Shown: positions 2,066 through 57,111 of the stretch, one piece after another | Numbering within the stretch: position 1 is the stretch's first letter | How the letters are laid out: each line of letters begins with the position of its first letter | Notes under the pieces: model-generated | The model's input: only the letters and a program-made list of their open reading frames with translations | What the model was told of the DNA's origin: nothing | The model's database searches: none | Translations under genes and position numbers: made by a program | Source of the DNA: Eukaryota sp. GEM-RC1 | Taxonomy: Eukaryota | DNA length: 64,000 nt | Reading direction: 5' to 3' | NCBI GenBank assembly: GCA_040285855.1 | Contig: JAUFOQ010000017.1 | Coordinates: 434,001-498,000, forward strand

Positions 2066-3747
2066 TTAAACGATTTTTTCAAAGTCAATAATTTGATTAT
2101 CATTATTTTCAATAATTTGTTCATCAACATTATCAACAACAACTTCATCAACACAATGAACAATTTCAGGAACAACAACATCATCCATAATTGGTTCACT
2201 CGATTCTGCACAAAAGTTTGCAAACAATGAATTAAAATGATTGAAATCTCGTTGAAGACAATGTTGATTTCCCAAAACATACAAATCAATAGTGGATGGT
2301 TTAACAGGATGAAAAGTTGAATAATACCATTGGTACAATTCCAAATTTGGTACCGGATAACTTCTTCCAATACTTAAAATCTTTAAACTCCTCCAAGACC
2401 TAACCGTACTTAAGGTCACATAAAGTTGGGCATATTCCCAAAACTGGATAGCAACTTCAATCCCGTCAATTGTTAAACCTTGGGATCGATGCACTGTTAT
2501 CGCCCAGCAAGGTCTTAGCGGAAACTGAATTCTTTTCGCCACTTGAACAGGTCTTCCGATTTCGTTCAAGTGTTCGATAGCAAACCTTGACTGACTGATT
2601 CTTTTCGGTTCTGCTTCAGCGTTGAACCGAACATCAATATATGAATCTGAAAAATTAACAATAACTCCTTTTGAACCATTAACTAGTCCAAGTTCAGGCT
2701 TATTTTGAGTGTACATCACTTGTCCACCCACAACGCATTCTAGTTTTTTTTCAGCAAAGTCATCCAAGCGACTTGTCAGCACAGAAGTTTCAATGTCATA
2801 ATATTTTTCCAAATTAGATTCATTGACTGGAAATCTAGAACTTCTTTTTCTGATTTGAGATTTTAATTCAGATTCATTGAATTTGTCAACAGCTACAAAT
2901 TCAATTGAATCTGAATTTTGGCCAGAAGTTTGAATTGTTTAAAATTTTCTCTAGCAACATCAGTATTCTTTCCGTATAAAATTGTTGGGTTTTCAACAGA
3001 TTCTGCTGTTTCGAAATGAGTACGCAGAATTGATTTCATAAAATTATCTAACAGACCCAATCTCAATTGATTTAGAAAATTAAAAAATTTTGAGTCTGAT
3101 TGCTGACGAATACTTCCAGCCAGTTCACAATATTTAAAATTTAAATTGTTCCAAGCTCTTGATGAAAAAGCGAAATCAGAAATTACCACTTTTCGATTTC
3201 CTTTTCCATCAAGACTTTTCACAACAGGGGCTAATTGAAGAAAGTCCCCAAAACAAATTATCTGAATTCCTCCAAATGGTTTCTTCGGAGAGTGACATTT
3301 TTGCGTGTGCATAAGTTCGCCCAAAATGTCACTCGCCCGTTGAAACAAATTGGAGGATAACATTGAAATTTCATCAATGATTAACATTGTATTTTTTGGA
3401 GTAATATTTTTTAACAAAATTTTGACATTTGATGGCATACATTTGATAACATCATGTATGGATTCTTCTTCTTTCATAAACTTATAACCAAACAGTGAGT
3501 GTATGGTCTGTCCACCAAAAACAGTTGAGGCAACCCCAGTTGTTGCAGTGAAGAAGATTTCACCATTAGCACGCATGAGACGAGATCCTGCGTTATTCCA
3601 CCAGTATTTGAGAGCATGTAAAAGATAAGATTTTCCTGATCCTGCACCACCAGTGACAAAGAAGTTGTGTCTGCTGGTAGTGATTGCGTTAAAGATCTCA
3701 CGTTGGTCATCTGTGAGATTGATGTTGTGTAAAGAGGTTGGTGCCAT
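2066..3747 (-). CDS. PIF1: Pif1-family SF1B DNA helicase, split by frameshift(s) near 2812-2893
   Basis: Motifs FVTGGAGSGKS, TATTGVAS, GGQTIHSLFG, LIIDEISM, PFGGIQIICFGDFLQLAPV, RQQSD..F...LNQLRLG, GLVNGSKGVI, QFPLRPCWAITVHRSQGLT, QLYVTLST. Confidence 0.9.
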
Positions 3748-26958: not shown

Positions 26959-28197
26959 ATGACTGACTCAAAAATCCAAGAACTACAAGCACTTGAAAAG
27001 AAACATCGCTTAGCGGAGGATAAGGACAACACTCGAGCTGTGGCAATAGAACTTTTAGATGTTTGTCGCAGCGTCAGTGACTCTCGTGCTCTTTCAGAAC
27101 TTACTACTCTTGTTAAAAAGCGTCTACAACAACCCGATACAATTACAGCAATTGTTCGTCATGTCCTGTCTTGGGCCGATGATTATTCGGAATCCGATCC
27201 ATCAACAGTCCCATTTAGGCAAAGCATCTTCTCTGTTGTACGTGAAGCCTCTGCAGGCAAATTAACAGTCGAAAGAGAACACGCTTTTGCCACTAAATCC
27301 CTTTCATTATTATTAGATCAACAAGGCAAGATCTCTGAAGCATCTTCTATCATTAAAGACTTTGCTCCCGAACAAATCGGAGCTCTTTCACGATCAGAAC
27401 GTATCGACATGATCCTCTTCCAGACCTCAACCTTTCTCAAATCTGATGATTTCGTCAGGGCTGAGATAGCATTCAGGAAGATCACCACAAGATCTCTTCA
27501 ACATGAAGAAGTCTCACCTGAACTGAGGGTTCGATTCTACTCCTTGGCTACTTCAATTGCCAATATCAAGAAGGAGTTGCTCACGGCTGCTGCTGCTTAC
27601 TTTGACCTCTACATTTCCTCTCTCACACTTCCTTCAGACTCTTCTCTTCATTCTCTGGCAGAAGGATCGCTTTCCTTTGCTGCACGGTATTGCCTAATGT
27701 CAGAGCTCTCTCCTGAACGTACCACTCTGATTGGAAGAATAATGGAGGCAGTTGTACTCAAGGAAGATCTCCCTTCAGAAGTTGACCTTCTTAAAACAAC
27801 TTTAGGATCAGAGCTAATCAATATCACAGCTACTGATGAACTTCCTGAGTCGTCTACAACTCAGCAGTTTTTCCCAAATTGGAAGTTGCTAGTCAAGGAG
27901 AGATTGATTGACCACAATATTACTGTCATTGCTAAGTTCTTTAGTCGCATTTCCTTTGATGATATTTCTTCTCTTGTTCAGTGTGATGTTTCAACCATGG
28001 AAGATCGTGTGTGTACATTGTTTGGTAATAATGTTATCTTTTGTAGAATTGATCGCTTAAAAGAGGAGATTTCGTTTAGAAAGGATCTTGATCCCGCATC
28101 TGAAGCTAATGAGTGGAGTATGTCGTTGATGAGTACGATTGACAAGTTAGAAAAGGCAGTTCATTTGATTGAAGTAGAGCAGAGTTTCAGCAAATAA
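26959..28197 (+). CDS. RPN5: 26S proteasome lid subunit RPN5/PSMD12
   Basis: LQALEKKHRLAED, LVKKRLQ, AGKLTVEREHA, C-terminal PCI domain (ERLIDHNITVIAKFFSRI, CRIDR). Confidence 0.92.
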   Translation: MTDSKIQELQALEKKHRLAEDKDNTRAVAIELLDVCRSVSDSRALSELTTLVKKRLQQPDTITAIVRHVLSWADDYSESDPSTVPFRQSIFSVVREASAGKLTVEREHAFATKSLSLLLDQQGKISEASSIIKDFAPEQIGALSRSERIDMILFQTSTFLKSDDFVRAEIAFRKITTRSLQHEEVSPELRVRFYSLATSIANIKKELLTAAAAYFDLYISSLTLPSDSSLHSLAEGSLSFAARYCLMSELSPERTTLIGRIMEAVVLKEDLPSEVDLLKTTLGSELINITATDELPESSTTQQFFPNWKLLVKERLIDHNITVIAKFFSRISFDDISSLVQCDVSTMEDRVCTLFGNNVIFCRIDRLKEEISFRKDLDPASEANEWSMSLMSTIDKLEKAVHLIEVEQSFSK

Positions 28198-28252
28198 ATA
28201 GCTTGTATATGCAATTGTGTTGTCTAACACCATTAATAATTGTGTATATATA

Positions 28253-28561
28253 TTATGATATATATTTAATGATATTAATTTTATACTTCATATGATGAAT
28301 ATATGAAGTAATGATTTCTAGACCTGAAGAAGAGTCGAAGCTATTGTCGTCCTTGCAAACAAGTTCAGCAAATGGTGAAAGAATTCCAAAAGCCAGAATG
28401 AGAAGAAGCTCGTATTCCTTAAATCTAACAGCAGCATAGAAGACAACAATAAGACCTGTAGCATCAGTCAGTGCAGATATAGCGAACACCTTCAAGAAAG
28501 AAAGTAAGTCAATCAAAGCGTGTTAGGACTAGCAAGACGCTGATACCTGAGAAAGCTGCAT
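28253..28561 (-). CDS. Small membrane protein, Vps55/endospanin-like N-terminal half, apparently truncated; 57-nt intron 28490-28546
   Basis: ATG CAG CTT TCT CAG | GTATCA...TTGAAG | GTG TTC GCT gives MQLSQVFAISALTDATGLIVVFYAAV...LSPFAELVCKDDNSFDSSSG; two TM segments; the intron carries an in-frame stop. Confidence 0.4.
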
Positions 28562-28657
28562 CAGTAGCAGTAAAAAGTGAAAAGAAAACTGGGTAAAATC
28601 AAAATCCCCTATGAAACGGAATCCTGCTGAGAGGAAAGTGATGAACAATCAATAACA

Positions 28658-29311
28658 ATGTCGACAGTGACTTATTTCCGTCTCATGACTCCATCAGGTT
28701 TGTTGATGTCTCACACAGTAAGAGGTTCCAATCCTCCTCGGCTGGACGTTTTGTATCCAGTTGAGACTGAAAGTTCCATCCTTTCAGTTATGTGTTCAGG
28801 AGGTTCCAATCCTCCTAACACTATAAGAGGTTCCAATCTTCCTCGGCTGGATGTTTTGTATCCAGTTGAGACTGAAAGTTCCGTCCTTTCAGTTATGTGT
28901 TCAGGAGGTTCCAATCCTCCTCGGCTGGATGTTTCGTATCCAGTTGAGACTGAAAGTTCCGTCCTTTCAGTTATGAATTTGGGTGGGGACTACGGCCCTA
29001 ACCCAGGATTAACAACTCAGGGCAGTTGCAGAGAAGAGGCTAACAGCTTGATATCTGCAACTCCTGATGAGTTAATACCGCAGTGGTCCGTGTCTTGTTG
29101 TAAAACTCGACAAAAGCAATTCACTTTTGATTTGGAGAATAAACACAATTTCAAATTTTGTTTGATTCATTTGTTTGTGAAAGATTTAACCAACGATGGT
29201 GATATCGAGTCGAATCCCGGACCGGTATCATTTAACTCACATGAATTTGAAGACATAACATTGTTGTCTGAATGGGAATGGTTAGAGCTATTCCATCTTC
29301 TTTTTCCATAA
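28658..29311 (+). CDS. Polyprotein segment 1: repeat leader, 2A peptide and start of the Ulp1-like domain
   Basis: 26-aa repeats, FVKDLTNDGDIESNPGP, then EDITLLSEWEWLE; the frame changes at the T-run near 29301-29305. Confidence 0.75.
   Translation: MSTVTYFRLMTPSGLLMSHTVRGSNPPRLDVLYPVETESSILSVMCSGGSNPPNTIRGSNLPRLDVLYPVETESSVLSVMCSGGSNPPRLDVSYPVETESSVLSVMNLGGDYGPNPGLTTQGSCREEANSLISATPDELIPQWSVSCCKTRQKQFTFDLENKHNFKFCLIHLFVKDLTNDGDIESNPGPVSFNSHEFEDITLLSEWEWLELFHLLFP
28722..28975 (+). repeat. Three 78-bp units (last one partial) plus a 27-bp insert; each unit contains three short hairpins
   Basis: GAGGTTCC anchors at 28722, 28800, 28827 and 28905; stems GAGG/CCTC, CTGGA/TCCAG, ACTGAAAG/CTTTCAGT. 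Confidence 0.9.
29174..29224 (+). other. 2A-like (StopGo) peptide FVKDLTNDGDIESNPG|P
   Basis: Exact D(V/I)ExNPGP consensus with 'DLTxxGD' context. Confidence 0.85.
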
Positions 29312-30531
29312 ATAATATCAGTTTGGATTACCCACTCGCCAATCAAACTATTGGATTTTATCATGTATATAACTTTCTAACGTTAGAGAAAGATGTTATT
29401 TATCATGATATAAGAGAAAAAAATGCAGATTGTCGGCTTGTTCTTATTCTCATGAACAATGGTATTATTGACGGATTTGCGGGAACTCACTGGGGACTAT
29501 GTGTTGTAGATTTCATGACTGAAACGTTATACTTCATGGATTCTATTTCTAATAGTGATTTGTTGTCCTCAAAAATTCATTTTATACAATCGTTTTGCCC
29601 AAACAACTTTTACCATTGTCACATTAATTCTGTGAAACAGGACAATGGTTATGATTGTGGCATATTTGTTCTGTATTTTATTGAAGTTTTATTTAAGACA
29701 TTTAACGTTGAAACAATTGGTCACATTGATCACTGTATAATGATGACAGATTTTCAAAATGAAATTATGCATCATCAATTTGATCCCTCTCCATTTCGTA
29801 TCAGATTGAATCTAAAACTGGACAGCCACGTTAATCCAGGAAAAAGACTGGCCACTATCAGCAATATGCCTCCAAGAAAACAAAAACGATCAAACAATAG
29901 TAATGAAAACGAACCGCAACTGGTGAAAAAAATAATTGGGCGTAAATGTTCAAAGTGTAGAAACACTGGTTATGATATAAGAAAATGCCCATTGGCAGTA
30001 AAAACAAGTGAAAAAACAAACGAAAAAGAATCACCAGTTAAGTCTAAAAAAAGAAAAGATCCTTTCGAAAACGTAACCTTAATGTTAGATCACAAACACT
30101 CGATTAAGTGTATTTTTGTGAAAATGATCGAAGCTTCAGCAGCTATTAAAGAAACTAAAAAAGAAAAAGAGAAAAAAATAATCACATCAATAATCACTCA
30201 AACAGTTCAGGTCCAGGTCCAAGTAATTTCAATTGTAGAATCAATTATATTCACTACACAACAAAGTATCGATTCAGTTCTGTCACGTAATTCTGAGCAT
30301 GCTAGAGTGAATGTTCAAGCGTTTAATCAAGAGGAATCTATGATTAGTGCGTTTAATGATTATTTAGTTTTAACTGACTGTGGTCTGATAATTGGTTATG
30401 ATGCAAGTTCTACGTTGGATGAATTTAATTTTAAATCAGAGAATTGTTCAATTATTCAGTGTCCTCTCTTTTACAAATATTTTTTAAAACAATTCAAAAA
30501 TTCAGTTGATAGATTTGGGCCGTGTTATTAG
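29272..30531 (+). CDS. Polyprotein segment 2: Ulp1/SENP8-like C48 cysteine protease plus CCHC-like zinc knuckle
   Basis: THWGLCVVD (His 29488), YFMDS (Asp 29539), KQDNGYDCGIFV (Gln 29638, Cys 29656); RKCSKCRNTGYDIRKC at 29941-29988. Confidence 0.85.
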   Translation: MGMVRAIPSSFSINNISLDYPLANQTIGFYHVYNFLTLEKDVIYHDIREKNADCRLVLILMNNGIIDGFAGTHWGLCVVDFMTETLYFMDSISNSDLLSSKIHFIQSFCPNNFYHCHINSVKQDNGYDCGIFVLYFIEVLFKTFNVETIGHIDHCIMMTDFQNEIMHHQFDPSPFRIRLNLKLDSHVNPGKRLATISNMPPRKQKRSNNSNENEPQLVKKIIGRKCSKCRNTGYDIRKCPLAVKTSEKTNEKESPVKSKKRKDPFENVTLMLDHKHSIKCIFVKMIEASAAIKETKKEKEKKIITSIITQTVQVQVQVISIVESIIFTTQQSIDSVLSRNSEHARVNVQAFNQEESMISAFNDYLVLTDCGLIIGYDASSTLDEFNFKSENCSIIQCPLFYKYFLKQFKNSVDRFGPCY

Positions 30532-33139
30532 AAATTTTTACAGACCTAGAACTGGAAAATCTTTGAATTGGGTTACTGTTGTAAAGAACATTTTAAAAAA
30601 TGAAAGTTATTCAGTTCCCACACCAGTTTCTACAGATTTCACATCTGAACAAAACTTGAAATGTTTACGTGAGCATTTTAACGATATTGTTGAATTACAA
30701 AGCCTTTTTGTGTATTTCCTTCAAGTCGAAACACAAGAGTTGCTGAAATGCCCGGGTGAAAAAACGGTTAAAGTAACACAAAAATCTGTTTGGAGTGATA
30801 ATAACTTATTGGTTAATGAAATTTCTATAAATCATCACCGAATTAAACAACGTGCATTGCTGCTACTTCAAGGCTTTTGCATGAACTCTTTTGATAACCA
30901 GGAATTGAATCCAGTAGAATGGACCAAAGAAAGTGTCCAACAATTGCTCTGGAATATTGGATACTTGTCTCCATTAGCTCATCAAAGATTTAAAAATGAG
31001 GAAAATATTGATGGAACTGAAATTCTCAAATGGGTAACTGAGATTGTTCAAAGTACTCCAGGCAAAAAGCACAATGCTTTGAAAGTTCAATTGGGATGCT
31101 TCTATATCCAACATCTTCTCCCCGTGGATATGGAAATTCCCAATGTCAAGTACTCTGATATGTCTCGTACACTAAATTATACAGCTACTGAGATTGTTAC
31201 AATGTATCAAAATAATATTTCATCCCATTTTATTGAATATTTGGAAAAACATGGGAACTATTCTTTAATTTAAATGGACAACTAGAAATTATTAAAAACA
31301 ATGCACTTAAAAAAAGTCGAAAAAGACCAGTTGCAAAAGTTGTCTAACAATATCCTCAAAGAAATTTTAGAAGGCAGAGGATCCGATATTGATTTTACCG
31401 AGATCTGGCAAAATCCATCAGATGAACATCAAAATTTCATTACATTTGTCAAAAACTTTAAGCCAGACTCTAAAGGACTCAAATACCAATTAAAGGTAAA
31501 GCCTTTGGAGCTCTTACCAGAGGCCTTCGTTCTCAACAAATTGATTGAGAATAATCCTTCCTGTAATGAGATTCCACCAAAGATGTACCGCATGTTTCCA
31601 CAATCCACCAGCTTAATTCCTGGTCACCTTCGATTGGATACGCTAGCTATGATTAATTTATTTAAACCTCAAGTTCAAGGTTATAATCTAAAACATCTGA
31701 GCGAAAACATTAATTTATTTAAAAATCAAATTTGGAGCCAGTATTTGAATCTTGATCACAAATACTTGAACACCTTCAAAAAGATGTATTCATTTGGTCA
31801 CCAGATAACTACCAATGGTGAATCAATCAGTCTCATGATGACCAGAAATGATCTACTGTTCAAACCATACTCTGCCAAGTCTCCGGAGGAAAAAGAGGAG
31901 TATGTGGAAGATTTACATCCTGAAAAATTAGAGGATTTAAAAAATAAAAAAAGTCGTGGTGGGGGACCCTAACCAATGGGATATTCTGTACTTGGTTGGA
32001 AGATAAACCCAGGAAGAAATTGATAATCCTGGGCATTGTGCTCCCCACTTGACCCAAAAATCTCAAAAACATATGAAAAGAAGAGATTGAAAGAAATTAA
32101 AAGGCATAAAGCCCAGTTCCAAAAAGAGAATAATGAGGTCAAAAAATCAAGTAAAAAGAGACCATTTCAAAAGAAAAATCAATTCAAAAAAATGAGATAT
32201 ACTCAAGGAACTCGAAGGCACGAAGGAAAACAAAAAAAATACAATGTATTTCAGAACCAAGCCTTCAAAAACTATTCTTTTAACGAAATTTCAGGAAGAC
32301 AACTGACAGCTGAACAGATTCAGACAGAATTTTCAGAATTTACTTCCAAAACAACAAATTTTTCAAAATTCAAAGCGTACGTCCAACAATTCTACATGTA
32401 TGCAAATAGAATGGAGTCTCTGTACCATCAATCTAAATGGCGCAAATGGAGCTATTGGAAATCAGTATACAAGGAAAAAAGTGAACGTAAAATGCTCCAT
32501 CGATTCCGTCAAGTTTACGGAGAGCCAACCAACACGTGGTTGGCCATAGGTGATTGGAGTCAGTCAAGGCATAGGAAATACAAGCCTCCATCCATGGGGA
32601 AAGGATCGAGAAAGTTGTTCAAAAAAGCTGGCTATCAGGTTCTTCTGGTTAACGAATTCAGGACATCTCTTCAGTGCCACGGATGTTCTGAGAACAACGA
32701 TGACGAAGGGGAAACGGAAACCTTCCTTAAAGTCAAGGATCCAAACTTCCGGAAGAAGAAGCGAAGAGTTGACAAGAAGGCAAATCGCCTATCAGCGCTG
32801 AGGAATTGGTCTAGTTGGACGGACGAAGATGATAAGCTGTTGTGGCAGGAAGAGCCCGATGAAGTCAAGTGTTGGGGTTTAGTGCGTTGTAAAAAATGTC
32901 ATAAACTCTGGAATCGAGACTTCAATAGCTGTTTGAATATTCTAAAGATTGTTGAGTGTACTCCCGCTGGTGAGGATCGACCAATGTGTTTCTCTGACAA
33001 GTTAGCTGAAGAAAGACGGAAGAGAGCAGCAAAGAGTACAAACAACAATGAAGATTCAATAACAGAAACAGTGGCGGACCCGCAAGGGATAGAACCGCCA
33101 CAGCCCATGTGCACTGTGAGTGTAGATGAATGTCCATAA
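30506..33139 (+). CDS. Polyprotein segment 3: Fanzor1 (eukaryotic TnpB-like) RNA-guided endonuclease, broken by homopolymer frameshifts
   Basis: LNYTATEIVTMYQNNISSHF, MFPQSTSLIPGHLRLDT, ITTNGESISL, RuvC-I KVVVGDPN (Asp 31965, read after the A7 run), RYTQGTRRHE, AIGDWS..PPSMGKG, RuvC-II LVNEFRTS (Glu 32654), CHGC...CKKC, RuvC-III WNRDFNSCLNI (Asp 32918), ..RP. Confidence 0.9.
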
Positions 33140-33180
33140 TTCGTTATGGGGAATTCATCTTAAGAGAAATTCACAGTTGA
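33068..33180 (+). ncRNA. Putative Fanzor omega-RNA scaffold overlapping the ORF 3' end
   Basis: GTGGCGG(33071-77)/CCGCCAC(33095-101) enclosing CCC-GCAA-GGG; AGATGAAT(33124-31)/ATTCATCT(33153-60) enclosing CCATAA-TTCG-TTATGG; ACTGTGA(33113-19)/TCACAGT(33171-77). Confidence 0.7.
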
Positions 33181-33222
33181 CTTTTTGACAGAATTTTCCA
33201 ACCTTAAACCTCTAAACTCTCT

Positions 33223-33547
33223 ATGGTTGTCCACTTTTGTGAAGAATGTAAGGGTCTCCTTAAACCTATAGTTCAAGATGAACAACTTGTGTATGCCTGT
33301 ATGACTTGTGAAACCAGTTTTCCTGCTGAAACCAATTGTGTTTTCCGTCACGTTATATCTCATAAATATCATGAAGAAAAAGACTATCAAACGTTCTGAT
33401 GACTTTGATGCTTCTGTTTCGCGTACTTCGAGTCAGGAGTGTCCGAACTGTGACAAGCGAGAAGTTGGATTCACAACAGCAAACGGTCCTGATGAGCAAA
33501 TATTGATTGTGTATAAGTGTCAAAACTGTTCTCATACGTGGCAATAG
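33223..33547 (+). CDS. RPB9: RNA polymerase II subunit RPB9 (1-nt frameshift in the A-run near 33377-33381)
   Basis: MVVHFCEECKGLLKP...LVYACMTC...AETNCVFRH, then DASVSRT..ECPNCDKREVGF...IVYKCQNCSHTW: two zinc ribbons. Confidence 0.85.
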
Positions 33548-33814
33548 ACTGTGGTGTTCTTTTTCCGGTTAATTGCTTTTTTGTTAGGGTTGTATTTCTG
33601 GCAAACTTTGTACTGTAGTTATTCTAATGTTTTATGATGGTATACTGTCTAACATTAAGTAACTCTGTTGAGATAAACAATTTAACTTGAAAGTAAAATT
33701 TAGACTGTACTTTGCTACTAGTATTTAGTTTTGTTCAAAAACACACTTTTAATCGAAACCGCTACGTGTTTATGGAAAATCGGACTTCTTAAAGATTATA
33801 GAACTACATAAAAT

Positions 33815-33886
33815 TTCTTCTGCCCAGAATCGAACTGGGATTGCTTGATTCAAAGTCAAGCGTGCTAACCATTACACTACAGAAGA
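33815..33886 (-). tRNA. tRNA-Gln(UUG)
   Basis: TCTTCTG TAGTGTAATGGTTAGCAC G CTTGA-CTTTGAA-TCAAG CAAT CCCAG-TTCGATT-CTGGG CAGAAGA A; full cloverleaf. Confidence 0.95.
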
Positions 33887-34168
33887 GACGACTCGCCTAT
33901 GAAAAGATCCGAAATTGAACTTACTCTCTATCCAGCCAAATATGTTTTAGTCCTGTCTATCATAAAAACGGACTCAATCAGTAAATGCTTTTGCAGAAAT
34001 TAGTAACTAACAGACACTAACTAAAGTATCTAAACTATGATCCTTCTGTCCATCACCCAACCATATTACAACACTAACGCATTGAACAAATTGTTTTCGT
34101 CAGCAAAAATAACATACTAGTAAATCTTTCAATGACAAAAACGCATTTTATTTACAAATACATAGTCA

Positions 34169-34610
34169 TCAATATGAACAAAAGAGATACGAATTCCTAT
34201 ACATTATCTCACATTCATATCTCAATTCAAAGAGACGGATTAAAATCGAATCACAATACCTAGACAATGCTTTAAAGAGGGAAAATGCCAACCTTCCTCT
34301 CCAATAAATTTCATTAAAATTCTTTTCATACTGATTACACAATTTGCTAAAAGATGTGAGAAAATTTTGGCCTAAGAAGCCACCCGTTCCTAAAAAAAGA
34401 AATAGCAAAAGGATGGAGAACAAACGGATTGTGTCGATGAGAATTCATCTTGGCAATTAATTCACCATATCCATCTATTTTTTTTTGGTCAGTAGTTTCA
34501 AGAGCAGAATAATTTTCGTCTAAAATTTTGTTAACAAAAGCTGATTTACAATGATCAACCGTAGTAAAGTCCATAATTATTTCTTGCGAGGACAACCAAG
34601 GACCAATCAT
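34169..34610 (-). CDS. Small hypothetical protein (two overlapping ORFs, probable frameshift at an A-run)
   Basis: ORFs 34347-34610 and 34169-34423 overlap across the A7 run near 34392. Confidence 0.35.
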
Positions 34611-34675
34611 ATGAGTGGTTATCGTTGTTAAGGATTTCAGTTGCCGTATAACGCGTGATGATCGAAAAATTATTA

Positions 34676-35492
34676 AGGGGCTCTATTCGGTAGGGCTCTA
34701 ATCAGTAGGGCTCTAATTTAGAGCCCCTTCCGCATATGGCTCTATTTGGTAGTTTTTTTCTATGAAAAGGAGCCATAATCAATACAGGGGAGGAGTTTTT
34801 TGACTTTGTGCTCATTAATAGTCATATAATATAAAACAATAACTAATAGGGTTGTTAAAGGTCACAGGTCACAGGTCAGGTCAATTCATTTGATGACCTT
34901 GACCTGACCCGTGACCTGTTACTGTGGACCTTGACCTGACCTTTGACCCGATTTATGTGATCTTGACCTGACCTTTGACCTTAATCAGTTGACCTTGACC
35001 TGGCCTTTGACCTGAAATCTACAATTTACTTTATTCTTTAACTATCGAAAATCCGTATAAACAAAGTCAAATCTAATGATTTCTTGAATATTAGTGTATA
35101 CTAAGAGTAAATGGCGTGAGTTAATGTAATTTTGATCATTTAAAACAAGATACTAACACATAAACTGCCAAATGTTTGACCTTGACCTGACCTTTGACCT
35201 GAATGGTAAGACCTTGACCTGACCTTTGACCTGATGTTCGTTAGCTTGACCTGACCTTTGACCTGAATGGTAAGACCTTGACCTGACCTTTGACCTGACC
35301 TGACCTGTGATTTTCAGGTCTTGACCTGAACTTTTAACAACCCTAATAAATAATGATTTTATTTAATGTTTTATATGAATACGTCAAATAATAAGTTATT
35401 TCCAGAAACGGGGTCTATTCGGTAGGACTCAAATTTAGAGCTCCCATCAATTGGGGCTCTATTCGGTAGGGGCTCTATTCGGTAGTTGACTG
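34676..35492. mobile_element. Remnant of a Tc1/mariner-pogo-like non-autonomous element with GGCTCTATTCGGTAG repeats, interrupted by a hAT MITE
   Basis: Repeats at 34678-34752 and 35411-35485; right end ...GTTGACTG|TA (reverse complement TA|CAGTCAAC); matching left end not found. Confidence 0.5.
34847..35345. mobile_element. hAT-type MITE with TGACC subterminal repeats
   Basis: 13-bp TIR TAGGGTTGTTAAA / TTTAACAACCCTA; 8-bp TSD ATAACTAA / ATAAATAA (7 of 8 match); many GACCTTGACCTGACCTTTGACC units. Confidence 0.9.
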
Positions 35493-35534
35493 TACTATCG
35501 ATAAATACACTTTAATAAAATATTTGTTTATTCA

Positions 35535-35674
35535 AGCCGAAAAAATATCGACTTGGCTTGGCTTCGAGTCGACTTGTCACTTTGGTTTGGCTTACTCAAA
35601 TGGCTCAAGCCAAAGCCGAACCAGTTTGGAATTTTACAAGCCAAACCATCTGGCTCAAGCCATTGACAGGTCTA
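35535..35674. mobile_element. MITE end fragment with TGGCT/AAGCCA repeats
   Basis: Clustered GGCTT/AAGCC motifs ending ...TTGACAGGTCTA; no partner end seen. Confidence 0.35.
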
Positions 35675-35869
35675 AAAAAACTTTTATTGTTCACAATGAC
35701 AATTCCACATTGCTTCAGGTCTCATATTGTCAAGAATTATCGCTGGTGGACAGTAAATATATATTTTCAAATCCCTGCTTCTGAACAAGAATAATAAATA
35801 AAAGATTCATTACAGAACAAAAATAACTTCGTTAAATATTAGATATTCAGTTTAAATTCCAAAATGACA

Positions 35870-38800
35870 TCAATTAAAGCTCATCGGAATAGATTTTAAA
35901 TTTTTAAGAGGAGCTAAAAACTGCTCCAAGTCATCGGCACTTTCCGTTTCCTTATAATTGAGATCAAAATTCTTCAAATCCAATGCAGTTAAATAATCAG
36001 AAACGTTAGTTGATTGAGAAAAATCAACCGAAACATCACTCACATCATCTCTAGAAGCCGTCTTAATCCAATCAAATTTAGTTAAAAGTTCCCCAATAGA
36101 GCAATCCAAATTCGAATATCCTGAGCTCTTTTCTGAGCCCTTTTCGGTGTAATCACTATCAGAAAGAACTCCAGCAACCTTACTTTTCCAGTTATTCTCA
36201 ACTGTTGATGTCATTTCTTCATCTTCTGAATCTCCTGTCACCACGGAATCGTCAAGAGAGAAGTCTGGGAGAGGAAGATTGGGATTAGACGTGGGAAACG
36301 AAGGGGAATCGTCAGGGGAGAATGAAATAGGTGAGGGTTGAGTGGACACTGAATTATAGAAATTTGGAATTGGAGAAATGTTTCGCAGGTTTTTGATCTC
36401 TTCATCAATCACCACGTCGTCAATCAAACGGTTATTAACTGGATATGTTTCCGTGACCTTGTCAGACACAGATTCCTTGAAATCATCTAATTGAGGAGAA
36501 GTACATCGATTCACGATTTCAGATCGTTTTGAGCTTGATTTCTGACCTGTCACGTGATTGGATTGACCTCCAGCGTTGTTTGACTGAGCTCTTAATGTAT
36601 TGGATAGATAGTTAGTTCGCTGCTCAACAACTTTCAAGATACTTTCTGTAGCTTGAAGTCTAGCCACACTGCCAAATTCTAACCCCATAGAGTCAACACG
36701 ATTCTTGTTGAAAATCATGTCATCACTATCAAACTGACTTGTAATTGGAACTGTATCTCTTTTTGGAAACAAAAGTAAAGGGTTTTCTTTTGAAATCTGA
36801 TCCTAGTTTTGAGCTAGGAGGGATGTCGAGGTCAGAAGGAGTAATCCGTGGGAGAGAAGGGGCCATGTGATTGGATTGATTTTGACCTTTTGCAAACGTG
36901 AGAGGTGGTGTTGATTGAGTGTTGAAATTCGACCGTGATACATTGTGATTGCGAAGTTGACGTGCTCTAAGAGACGTTCTAATGATTGGTGATGAGACAG
37001 ACTTTCCCTTTTGATTGAGTTGATTGACTGTAATACTGGGGGTTGATTGATCTCTGTTATCCGCTTCATGGGCTGTTCTTCTTGGTTTAGGCAAGTCATC
37101 GTTTTTGGATTCAAAATCACTAGTTTGAAGTTCAATATCGACACCCTTTTCCTTTTCTTTTAAATTTTCAACAATTTTTGAATCAAATAGAGTAGATACT
37201 TCCTTATCTGAATTCTTTTTACATAGAATTACTTCTTCCTTGTACTGTTGCACGTCATCGTGATTACTGCTGCTGACGTCATCACTTTCCGTTGATTGAG
37301 TATCACGTGATAAAGGAATCACCGCCGCTGATTGAGTATTTACTGGGGTAGAAACTGCAACCTCGTCTTCAAAATTCAACAAAAAGAGATCATCGTCGAT
37401 TTGATTGTAATTTGATTCCGAAGGACTCACCGACTTAGAACAATCAGAAACTGAATAATTGATTGATTCCATTCCATCATCACTCACGTCATCAAGAGGC
37501 TTATTTAGCATGAAAGTTGGAACCAACATCCACTGTCCTTCAATCAAAACGAGACCGGAAACCTGTTCCTCTCGATTGTAATCATAAGTTGGGTTAACGT
37601 CATCAAAGGTCAACAACTGAGGATCATCTTCTACTTGGGGAGTATCCGTGAGCTCATCTTGACTGTCATCATCTCCATCTTCCCCTTTCGACATCTCAAT
37701 CAAACTCTCATTCGCCTGATCGAGTTCCACTTGCTCTTCTGACTCCACTTCTGATTGAACTCTTTCCTCTTCCTTCTCCAGTTGTTCTTTCACTTCAACT
37801 TCAATGGAAACGTGCCTGGGATCGACTTCTTGTGATTGATCATTCTCAGAATCTTTGACAGAAGAAGCAGCATCAACACTGGATTCAATCAGATCTGATT
37901 GATTAGCGTCACCAGTGAATAGAACCTTGTCTAACTCGTGATTCACGAACTTAATGAAGACTGTGTCATTCAAATAACTCGTACTCAGACTTTCCATGGA
38001 CAAAACGTCATCATTTTGACCTTTAGATGAAGTCAACCAATCAGGAATTGATTGAGAGTCAAATGTGGCAATCAAACGTTTAAATCTATTTCTGAGTGGA
38101 GGGAAAAACAAACTAGTAGAAATACCATAATCAATCATTAAATTAGAAGCAACTTCCAAATCAATGGTCGAAAGTAGCTCAAAAAGTCCAATCAAATACG
38201 ATTGGATTATTTTGGGGTCAAAAATATCACTGAAACAAAGAACACGCAAGCACCATTTGATTGTTTTAACTATTTTTGAGCCTAATATATTTGAAGTAGA
38301 AGAAGATGAGGACCAATCTGACGACAAAGACACATCCAATTTAGGATCGAAAAAGACGTCTAAATTGAATTTTCTAATGAAAATATTAAATTTGTCTCGA
38401 CACAAGCAGATCCACAACACCTTTTTCAAGTCAGTAATAAGCAAACCTTTCTTTTGAGAATAATCATCAACATTCAACTTTAAAAGACAATTAATAACAA
38501 AGATACAACACTTCACTAAGTAAATCACGTCATGTCTCACAGACAACTCTTCATTAGACTCATTGCCTACCTCTAACTCTCCCTCACTCCTCCAATTCCA
38601 AAAGAAAGGAAGATCAAAGGAGGAAGGGACAAGAGGGGGAAGAGAGGAGAGCAGGGAGAGAACATGGGAGTGTATGAATGAGTGGAATGAATCTAGAAAG
38701 GAATCAAAGTTCGGGGTGGGAGGGAAAGAAGGTAGAACTGAGGTGATCTGAGAGTAGAGATGGGAAGGAAAGGACTGTGGAAGAGGTGGAGTACTTTGTT

Positions 38801-53581: not shown

Positions 53582-54284
53582 TCCAGTTGTTCAAATTCCA
53601 GACAGAGATTCCGTAATAAAATTCGTGTGGCTGGTCTCCCGAGATAAACGTAATTGCATCGACCATCTTCTGCATCATCGAGATCGTCCCACAATTCTTT
53701 AGACAATTTTAGATTCCTTTTAGCTACGGCATCAACAAAGGACCAACATGCAAGTGTTTTCATTTATTTCTGGACTATAAACCAAACTTTGAATCAAACT
53801 TCCTAAGACCGTCATTCGTTCAACGAAATACACTGGACACATCAAATGCATCCACTTATTTAAGTCATTTTGTTGTTTCAAATCTTTGCCTAATCTAAAA
53901 GAAGATTAGATGATTGAATATAGGCTTCCTTAATCATCATTTGTTTGTAAATGATGAGCCAAAACACGCTGATACACATTCACATCATTTGTTGATAAGA
54001 AAGATGAACATCACTCAAAACAAGTTTTCTTGAGAGTTAAGTTCATTTACAGATGGTGACGTTCTTTTGAGAGAGTAGGTTCATCCTCGTGAACAGGTAG
54101 TGATGACTGAGATAGAGTAATGGATTGTCGTAAAGAGAAAGGATCAGATTTGATTGACGAAATGACTGGTTGAATTTTGATTTTGAACAAACTTATGTCT
54201 TCAACATTATTCAAAACAATCTCAAGGATATCATCACCAGGCACTTAATCGCAGCCACAAAATTGAAATAAGAAAGATTCGTCT
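53582..54284 (-). repeat. Left arm of a ~700-bp near-identical inverted duplication
   Basis: Reverse complement of 56409-57111; the identical 65-aa ORF MPGDDILE... and the near-identical ORF MKTLACWS... occur on opposite strands. Confidence 0.95.
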
Positions 54285-56408: not shown

Positions 56409-57111
56409 AGACGAATCTTTCTTATTTCAATTTTGTGGCTGCGATTAAGTGCCTGGTGATGATATCCTTGAGATTGTTTTGAATAATGTTGAAGACATAA
56501 GTTTGTTCAAAATCAAAATTCAACCAGTCATTTCGTCAATCAAATCTGATCCTTTCTCTTTACGACAATCCATTACTCTATCTCAGTCATCACTACCTGT
56601 TCACGAGGATGAACCTACTCTCTCAAAAGAACGTCACCATCTGTAAATGAACTTAACTCTCAAGAAAACTTACTTTGAGTGATCTTCATCTTTCTTATCA
56701 ACAAATGATGTGAATGTGTATCAGCGTGTTTTGACTCATCTTTTTCAAACAAATGATGATTAAGGAAGCCTATATTCAATCATCTAATCTTCTTTTAGAT
56801 TAGGCAAAGATTTGAAACAACAAAATGACTTAAATAAGTGGATGCATTTGATGTGTCCAGTGTATTTCGTTGAACGAATGACGGTCTTAGGAAGTTTGAT
56901 TCAAAGTTTGGTTTATAGTCCAGAAATAAATGAAAACACTTGCATGTTGGTCCTTTGTTGATGCCGTAGCTAAAAGGAATCTAAAATTGTCTAAAGAATT
57001 GTGGGACGATCTCGATGATGCAGAAGATGGTCGATGCAATTACGTTTATCTCGGGAGACCAGCCACACGAATTTTATTACGGAATCTCTGTCTGAAATTT
57101 GAACAACTGGA
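56409..57111 (+). repeat. Right arm of the inverted duplication; weaker homology continues to about 57870
   Basis: See left arm; 57268-57364 matches 53480-53577 and 57846-57868 matches 53236-53258 in reverse complement. Confidence 0.95.

Follow-up and report, generated by a model that had tools for sequence, protein, structure and literature searches.

A candidate omegaRNA scaffold at the 3′ end of a Fanzor1 gene in Eukaryota sp. GEM-RC1

The guide RNAs of the Fanzor and TnpB nucleases are described as arising from the 3′ end of the nuclease open reading frame (ORF) and the right end of the transposon, with the guide at the 3′ terminus (PMC10432273, PMC10530073, PMC10711439, PMC11423790). According to the accounts cited here, this location of the guide RNA holds for all characterised Fanzors (PMC10432273, PMC10530073). 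The first stem-loop (SL1) consists of seven base pairs in the three solved Fanzor1 complexes GtFz1, SpuFz1 and PpFz1, a single second stem-loop (SL2) stands ahead of the guide in SpuFz1 and PpFz1, and Fanzor1 scaffolds range from 75 to 150 nt, the portion beyond SL1 being free to vary (PMC11423790). Fanzor1 RNAs are reported not to need a pseudoknot, on which TnpB and Fanzor2 RNAs depend; their terminal inverted repeats (TIRs) as well as target-site duplications (TSDs) belong to the scaffold, and the RNAs reach about 15 nt past the TSD (PMC10711439). Here we describe a fold at the stop codon of a Fanzor1 gene from Eukaryota sp. GEM-RC1, which is likely an ordinary further example of this published guide-RNA design. 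It lies in a stretch of 64,000 nt (assembly GCA_040285855.1, contig JAUFOQ010000017.1, positions 434,001 to 498,000 of the forward strand), which was analysed as a whole and is called the window below; all coordinates count from its first letter.

The fold consists of two stem-loops (Table 1). In SL1, GTGGCGG (33071-33077) is predicted to form seven Watson-Crick pairs with CCGCCAC (33095-33101), and a mini-hairpin within its loop joins CCC (33079-33081) to GGG (33086-33088) under a GCAA cap (33082-33085). SL2 is one composite stem-loop (33113-33177) with tiers of 9, 8 and 7 bp (24 bp) and a UUCG tip. Its 9-bp closing stem includes one G-U pair; the 8-bp middle stem pairs AGATGAAT (33124-33131) with ATTCATCT (33153-33160); and the 7-bp apical stem pairs TCCATAA (33133-33139) with TTATGGG (33144-33150), so that the Fanzor stop codon falls within it. 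The apical loop, TTCG (33140-33143), is closed by an A-U pair and not by the classic C-G. A preliminary description of this DNA had reported GCAA- and UUCG-capped hairpins straddling the Fanzor stop, and all the pairings that it described are present in the sequence. It had also proposed that ACTGTGA and TCACAGT pair over 7 bp in a long-range stem or a pseudoknot. The long-range stem holds and in fact comprises 9 bp, but TCACAGT is located at 33171-33177 and not at 33172-33178, and the pseudoknot role was dropped as unnecessary, since the pairing forms the base of SL2.

We interpret positions 33069-33177 of the plus strand as the omegaRNA scaffold of a Fanzor1 element and the following 15-20 nt, from 33178 on, as its guide, and assign this model a probability of about 65 %. 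It is favoured because all characterised Fanzors keep their RNA at this place, because a 7-bp SL1 is followed by an SL2, because the fold is strong and because the locus leaves no other room; by analogy, a covarying RNA that holds the same place at the Fanzor1 loci of relatives points in the same direction. As to the available room, the last conserved block of the Fanzor protein (GEDRP) ends near 32983 and the start codon of the downstream gene, RPB9, follows at 33223. A right-end scaffold is therefore confined to 33000-33222, a gap that is filled by the fold, and there is no alternative room for it ahead of RPB9.

Like the published Fanzor1 omegaRNAs, the fold shares its strand with the nuclease ORF and is situated at the ORF's 3′ end, has a 7-bp SL1 and one SL2, and requires no pseudoknot. 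The preliminary description had the RNA derived from the right end of the element and the guide from flanking DNA, which matches what is published for Fanzor and TnpB RNAs (PMC10432273, PMC10530073, PMC10711439, PMC11423790). With the omegaRNAs of SpuFz1 (Spizellomyces punctatus) and PpFz1 (Parasitella parasitica) the locus shares a Fanzor1 homolog with a same-strand RNA at the 3′ end of its ORF, the 7-bp SL1, the single SL2 before the guide, a length within 75-150 nt and a flank-derived guide, which is here predicted (PMC10432273, PMC11423790). Unlike these two RNAs, the predicted window RNA carries the extra GCAA mini-hairpin in the SL1 loop, has a three-tier SL2 of 24 bp and shares its sequence with the ORF over the ORF's final 69 nt, stop codon included. 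The reRNA described for the Fanzor1 of Spodoptera frugiperda ascovirus 1a and for related elements of insect viruses is similar in being multi-stemmed, in lacking a pseudoknot and in abutting the right end; it differs by its clear TIRs and by a scaffold that includes TIR and TSD (PMC10711439), whereas neither a TIR nor a TSD was found in the 64-kb window. Overlap with the 3′ end of the nuclease ORF and reading into the flank for the guide are also known from the ISDra2 TnpB omegaRNA of the IS200/IS605 family (PMC10432273), but TnpB omegaRNAs depend on a pseudoknot (PMC10711439), and none is needed or evident in the window RNA. Particular to the window RNA are the GCAA mini-hairpin in the SL1 loop, the long three-tier SL2 and the lack of a detectable terminal repeat.

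Table 1. Positions of the predicted guide RNA, its parts and the adjoining genes in the 64-kb window.
Feature	Position	Strand	Description
Fanzor1 coding region, read through paralog	30340..33139	+	ATG at 30340 (MISAFNDY...), TAA at 33137-33139; interrupted in the assembly
Predicted omegaRNA scaffold	33069..33177	+	109 nt; opens with the CAGU lead and finishes with the closing stem's 3′ strand; 3′ limit by analogy with relatives
SL1	33071..33101	+	7-bp stem; loop carries a 3-bp mini-hairpin with the GNRA loop GCAA
SL1-SL2 linker	33102..33112	+	11 nt, begins ACAGCCCATGT
SL2 closing stem, 5′ strand	33113..33121	+	ACTGTGAGT
SL2 upper part	33124..33160	+	8-bp stem, 7-bp apical stem and UUCG loop; includes the Fanzor TAA
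SL2 closing stem, 3′ strand	33169..33177	+	ATTCACAGT; predicted end of the scaffold and right end of the element
Predicted guide	33178..33197	+	first 15-20 nt of the flank, to about 33192-33197; inferred from published biology and the boundary rule of the relatives
RPB9 gene	33223..33547	+	downstream neighbour on the same strand; frame shifts at the A-run 33376-33380

The stability of the fold was compared with shuffled and with real sequence. For 33060-33200, RNAfold returned a minimum free energy of -43.1 kcal/mol, whereas 200 dinucleotide shuffles of the same segment averaged -29.6 +/- 3.3 kcal/mol and none of them folded as well (z -4.06; 0/200). Equally stable folds were obtained for 25 of 4260 real 118-nt segments from both strands of the window (top 0.6 %) and, at similar GC content, for 14 of 769 segments of this length. 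Repeat arrays, tandem or inverted, account for most of them (28.7-29.0 kb and 34.7-34.9 kb), and the fold is among the few strongly folded non-repeat spots in the 64 kb. A search of 28000-36000 against Rfam (E up to 1) gave nothing at the site, the only matches being a tRNA and sub-threshold miRNA-like hits in a repeat. A 32-nt repeat array (GACCTTGACCTGACCTTTGACCTGA-like, 34850-35330) folds more stably than any other part of the window, on either strand, and gives sub-threshold Rfam matches to miRNA families.

These data also bear on the alternative that the fold is no guide RNA at all, having arisen by chance or serving another use, for example as an mRNA 3′-end element of the Fanzor transcript or as an upstream feature of RPB9. 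Such an explanation would accommodate the missing Rfam match, the about seven other loci of the window that fold as stably and three covariance-model tests, described below, that gave no significant link to the RNA of relatives. We nevertheless regard it as unlikely: the equally stable segments are mostly repeat arrays, the GC content local to the fold is 0.48 as compared to 0.33-0.44 in 2-kb windows, and the combination of a 7-bp SL1 with an SL2 is sited exactly where all characterised Fanzors keep their RNA.

The assignment of the nuclease to Fanzor1 is based on several lines of evidence. A TnpB/Fanzor-like protein is encoded in frame 2 from 30506 to 33139, in which Pfam detects a Cas12f1-like TNB domain (30.5 bits, cut-off 26.3). 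The closest solved structures are SpuFz1 (8gkh) and PpFz1 (9cf0) with E-values of about 1e-10, and full-length relatives of 657-710 aa share 33-37 % identity. The catalytic residues D (VGDPN), E (VNEFRTS) and D (WNRD) are found together with a C4 zinc finger. The motif published for Fanzor1 proteins, D-X(125,275)-[TS][TS]-X-X-C4 zinc finger-X(5,50)-RD (PMC3627910), has its counterparts in VGDPN (31947-32003, in another frame), EFRTSLQCHGC...CKKC and WNRD. The preliminary description had called the ORF a Fanzor, and TNB domain, structural matches and the D/E/D motifs all agree with this and specify it as Fanzor1.

Relatives were collected by back-translated searches, from which the 80 best of 319 confirmed metagenome loci and the 80 best of 222 viral loci were taken; many of these came from giant-virus bins. 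Their Fanzor1 proteins share 30-38 % identity with the window protein. Around their stop codons we observed a recurrent RNA that consists of an unpaired CAGU lead, a first hairpin, ACAnAACCAnAAU and a closing stem around two to three hairpins and a CAUUUUAAA box; the linker corresponding to that between SL1 and SL2 measures 10 nt and begins with ACA. In 21 distinct sequences, 93.2 % of the cells are paired, as compared to 31-41 % when the partners were slid, and compensatory changes on both sides occur in 16 of 24 pairs, a score that none of 500 shuffles reached. In the fitted alignment, which has 67 distinct rows, pairing reaches 91 %. A covariance model built from 21 relatives (R1) matches 64 of the 80 metagenome loci, with four extra minus-strand copies, and 78 of the 80 viral loci; the two missed viral loci end just after the gene. 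Relative to the stop codon, the RNA begins anywhere between 85 nt upstream and 21 nt downstream, and its conservation is therefore that of an RNA, not of a peptide. When near-identical copies are compared, they remain similar up to the closing stem's last base. These findings agree with the account in PMC10711439, according to which Fanzor1 RNAs have no pseudoknot and TIR and TSD belong to the scaffold.

The window RNA resembles this RNA in its place relative to the stop codon, the CAGU lead, the first stem, the ACA, the 10-11-nt linker and the closing stem. It differs in that the CAUUUUAAA box and two inner hairpins, P3 and P4, are missing, and while the right end of the relatives is the TIR of a DDE transposon, this is not detectably so in the window. 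Insertions near the position of the SL1-loop mini-hairpin also occur in the relatives L064, L018, L027 and L015; among the relatives without hairpin P3, the MAFFT register of SL1 differs between subgroups (alignment A6). Six further copies of the RNA were seen at the relatives' loci, namely L074:6402-6504(-), L070:5840-5930(-), L044:6464-6559(-), L039:6473-6568(-), L091:6473-6568(-) and L129:182-316(+). They are located 1.5-4.5 kb from the Fanzor-linked copy, five of the six on the opposite strand, and may represent right ends of neighbouring or nuclease-less elements.

In L031 and L022, two of the relatives, the final 33 nt of the RNA also serve as right TIR to a 4.3-kb element with a DDE-like ORF, which raises the idea that the fold in the window matters only as DNA, a transposon-end signal in the form of a hairpin or terminal repeat read by the transposase. 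We consider this highly improbable. The right end has no inverted partner in the 64-kb window, and the fold contains a G-U pair and is more stable on the RNA strand (-40.5 kcal/mol) than on its complement (-34.0 kcal/mol), a difference of 6.5 kcal/mol. Moreover, DNA and RNA roles coexist in the relatives, and neither of them therefore excludes the other. The Fanzor1 elements of the two relatives (L031:467-4816 and L022:130-3658) have terminal inverted repeats of about 33 nt and a minus-strand ORF with a DDE-like block (LDETSI), and their right repeat corresponds to the 3′ third of the guide-RNA scaffold.

Several results weigh against the proposed scaffold. Applied to the window, R1 produced a full-length alignment at 33069-33175 with only 9.8 bits (rank 16 of 18, E 9.5 window-wide), and an E-value of 0.052 was reached only when the search was narrowed to 351 nt around the stop codon. 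A second model from 68 relatives (R2) did not match the site at E-values up to 10, and a third one, built from the window RNA alone (R3), found 0 matches in 100 loci of relatives with E up to 10 and, in the window, only itself and no second copy. A loose descriptor of the shared layout did not discriminate, as it hit 10 loci in the window compared to 7.0 expected in random sequence. Given these weak or failed tests, the CAGUGG lead, the 7-bp stem, the ACA, the 10-11-nt linker and the closing stem have to be taken as a lead and not as evidence of homology, and by sequence the window RNA and the RNA of the relatives are not demonstrably one family. The stems of the window RNA are predicted from one DNA copy of this type. 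In addition, the nuclease ORF of the window copy is interrupted in the assembly and does not run in a single frame, and no inverted copy of 33160-33177 was found in the 64-kb window with up to 3 mismatches. A run of five T begins 5 nt into the predicted guide (33182-33186) and would stop an RNA polymerase III transcript early. The last 33 residues of the protein are identical in all four members of its cluster, which come from four contigs, but this invariance is not significant because 13 of 215 columns are variable and about 2 would be expected in 33. In sum, the candidate omegaRNA of the preliminary description is supported in part, namely by the fold, the Fanzor1 ORF and the published layout, but not by the covariance models, and its nuclease gene is interrupted in the assembly.

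For the right end of the element, we relied on the relatives, whose copies cease to be identical at the closing stem's 3′ strand; transferred to the window, this rule would put the last base of the scaffold at 33177 and the first base of the guide at 33178. This estimate falls into the range of 33163 to 33180 given earlier for the end of the element. A guide made of the next 15-20 nt of the flank, as suggested before, would still lie upstream of the RPB9 start codon, but at a distance of 26-45 nt and not of 40-60 nt, 45 nt separating the predicted scaffold end from the ATG. Neither a left terminal repeat nor a further copy of the right end was found in the 64-kb window, in which the 3′ part of the RNA is not recognisable as a right terminal inverted repeat of the kind seen in the relatives.

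The sequence TTGAC occurs twice at the predicted scaffold-guide junction (33177-33181 and 33185-33189, 3 nt apart), which could be a duplication or chance. It is also part of the case for a later boundary, in which the region still encodes the omegaRNA but the scaffold runs on to 33181 (TTGAC) or 33187, with the TSD inside the scaffold and the guide starting later. This would be in line with the published Fanzor1 RNAs, in which the scaffold includes TIRs and TSDs and the RNA continues for about 15 nt past the TSD (PMC10711439), and RNAfold adds an outer helix to 33060-33200 that pairs 33063-33068 with about 33182-33187. On the other hand, the relatives have an unpaired 5′ CAGU lead and lose identity directly after the closing stem, and no TSD or left end can be defined in the window, so that we judge a later boundary rather improbable and retain 33177 as the predicted end.

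The gene downstream of the element was identified as RPB9 through its two halves, which both have RPB9 as best match among solved structures. A 25-nt intron between them was rejected, as the frame-1 reading across the supposed intron still aligns to RPB9 structures. The preliminary description had empty alleles cut next to RPB9, which it called an essential gene. Such cleavage would require a target-adjacent motif and a left end, neither of which was located in the window. That RPB9 is essential is doubtful, as yeast without it is viable, and the position of the element beside RPB9 looks incidental.

The Fanzor element is present in multiple copies, which also counts in favour of the scaffold model. 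There are at least four, 96-100 % identical, on different contigs: besides the 215-aa product of the window itself (P0024), the protein database holds three products with 96-98 % identity from three other contigs. In the window copy, stop codons occur at 31272 and 31284 and again near 32004-32026, the frame changes near 31250, 31310, 31945 and 32004-32035, and the RuvC-I block KKVVVGDPNQWDILYLV (31947-32003) occupies another frame. Near the start of the gene, at 30491-30504, the window copy differs by an 8-nt indel from the paralog with the 491-aa N-terminal product P0027, which starts at the equivalent of 30340. P0027 stays open where the window copy is broken near 31250 and 31310, one A-run being longer and another shorter by a single A, and is itself frame-shifted at another A-run near 31778. 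The change near 31945 lies in an A-run too (31940-31950). Together with the shift in the A-run of RPB9, these frame changes suggest homopolymer errors in the assembly, and some of the Fanzor breaks may therefore well stem from such errors. Several pairs of neighbouring host ORFs likewise overlap in different frames, for example 35870-36772/36729-39302 and 23754-24290/24287-24928. As for the 8-nt indel, it is more likely real and would then part the window copy from its start codon. Two other explanations of the interruptions were rejected. GT-AG introns that would remove the stops at 31272 and 31284 do not apply, as there is no GT and P0027 reads straight across, and a ciliate-type genetic code is at odds with the termination of RPB9 at TAG and with an ORF of 2351 codons that is open under the standard code.

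If the predicted RNA functions as in the published systems, it would be cut out of the Fanzor transcript and bound by Fanzor via SL1 (RuvC/TNB surface) and via the scaffold-guide junction (WED/REC). The flank-derived guide would then direct cleavage of the matching element-less site, given a proper adjacent target-adjacent motif. Since the nuclease gene of the window copy is interrupted in the assembly, any use of the RNA may depend on protein supplied by a paralog. A far-reaching version of this model takes the window copy as a protein-dead ghost with an intact guide-RNA gene, which programs a paralogous Fanzor to cut element-less alleles upstream of RPB9. The element would in this version also be a composite undescribed for Fanzor: upstream, its frame would continue into a Ulp1-type protease ORF, ahead of which lies a 2A-like skipping peptide. 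We regard this as quite improbable.

The upstream region shows the following features. A plus-strand ORF of 419 codons (29272-30531) carries a domain of the Ulp1/C48 peptidase type (38.5 bits). Ahead of the 8-nt indel, its final 55 codons correspond to the N-terminus of the paralog product P0027, so that the protease frame of the window copy enters the Fanzor start. Proteins of 230-734 aa included no paralog product that contains the protease, and the link between protease and Fanzor may therefore be local. Just upstream, with an overlap of 40 nt, the plus-strand ORF 28658-29311 contains three 105/78-nt tandem repeats, a region among the most stably folded of the window, and ends with DIESNPGP (29201-29224), which fits the 2A ribosome-skipping motif, D(V/I)ExNPGP.

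Two further features were noted elsewhere in the window. A 703-nt inverted repeat (53582-54284 and 56409-57111), whose arms are 99 % complementary and separated by 2.1 kb, has further, weaker inverted pairs on its flanks and is possibly a foldback or TIR element. On the minus strand, ORF 2893-3747 carries a PIF1-like helicase domain (E 5e-33) beside 14-nt tandem arrays and could encode a Helitron-type or telomere-related helicase.

The window RNA leaves the knowledge of how Fanzor works unchanged. Frame breaks in A-runs affect even RPB9 in this assembly, and 'dead' nuclease copies should therefore not be called from the assembly alone. For annotators, the analysis provides a testable boundary at 33177. 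If confirmed, the RNA would add a compact Fanzor1 guide-RNA scaffold of about 109 nt from an unclassified eukaryote, and the rule of a 7-bp SL1 plus one SL2 would prove able to locate such RNAs where sequence-based models fail.

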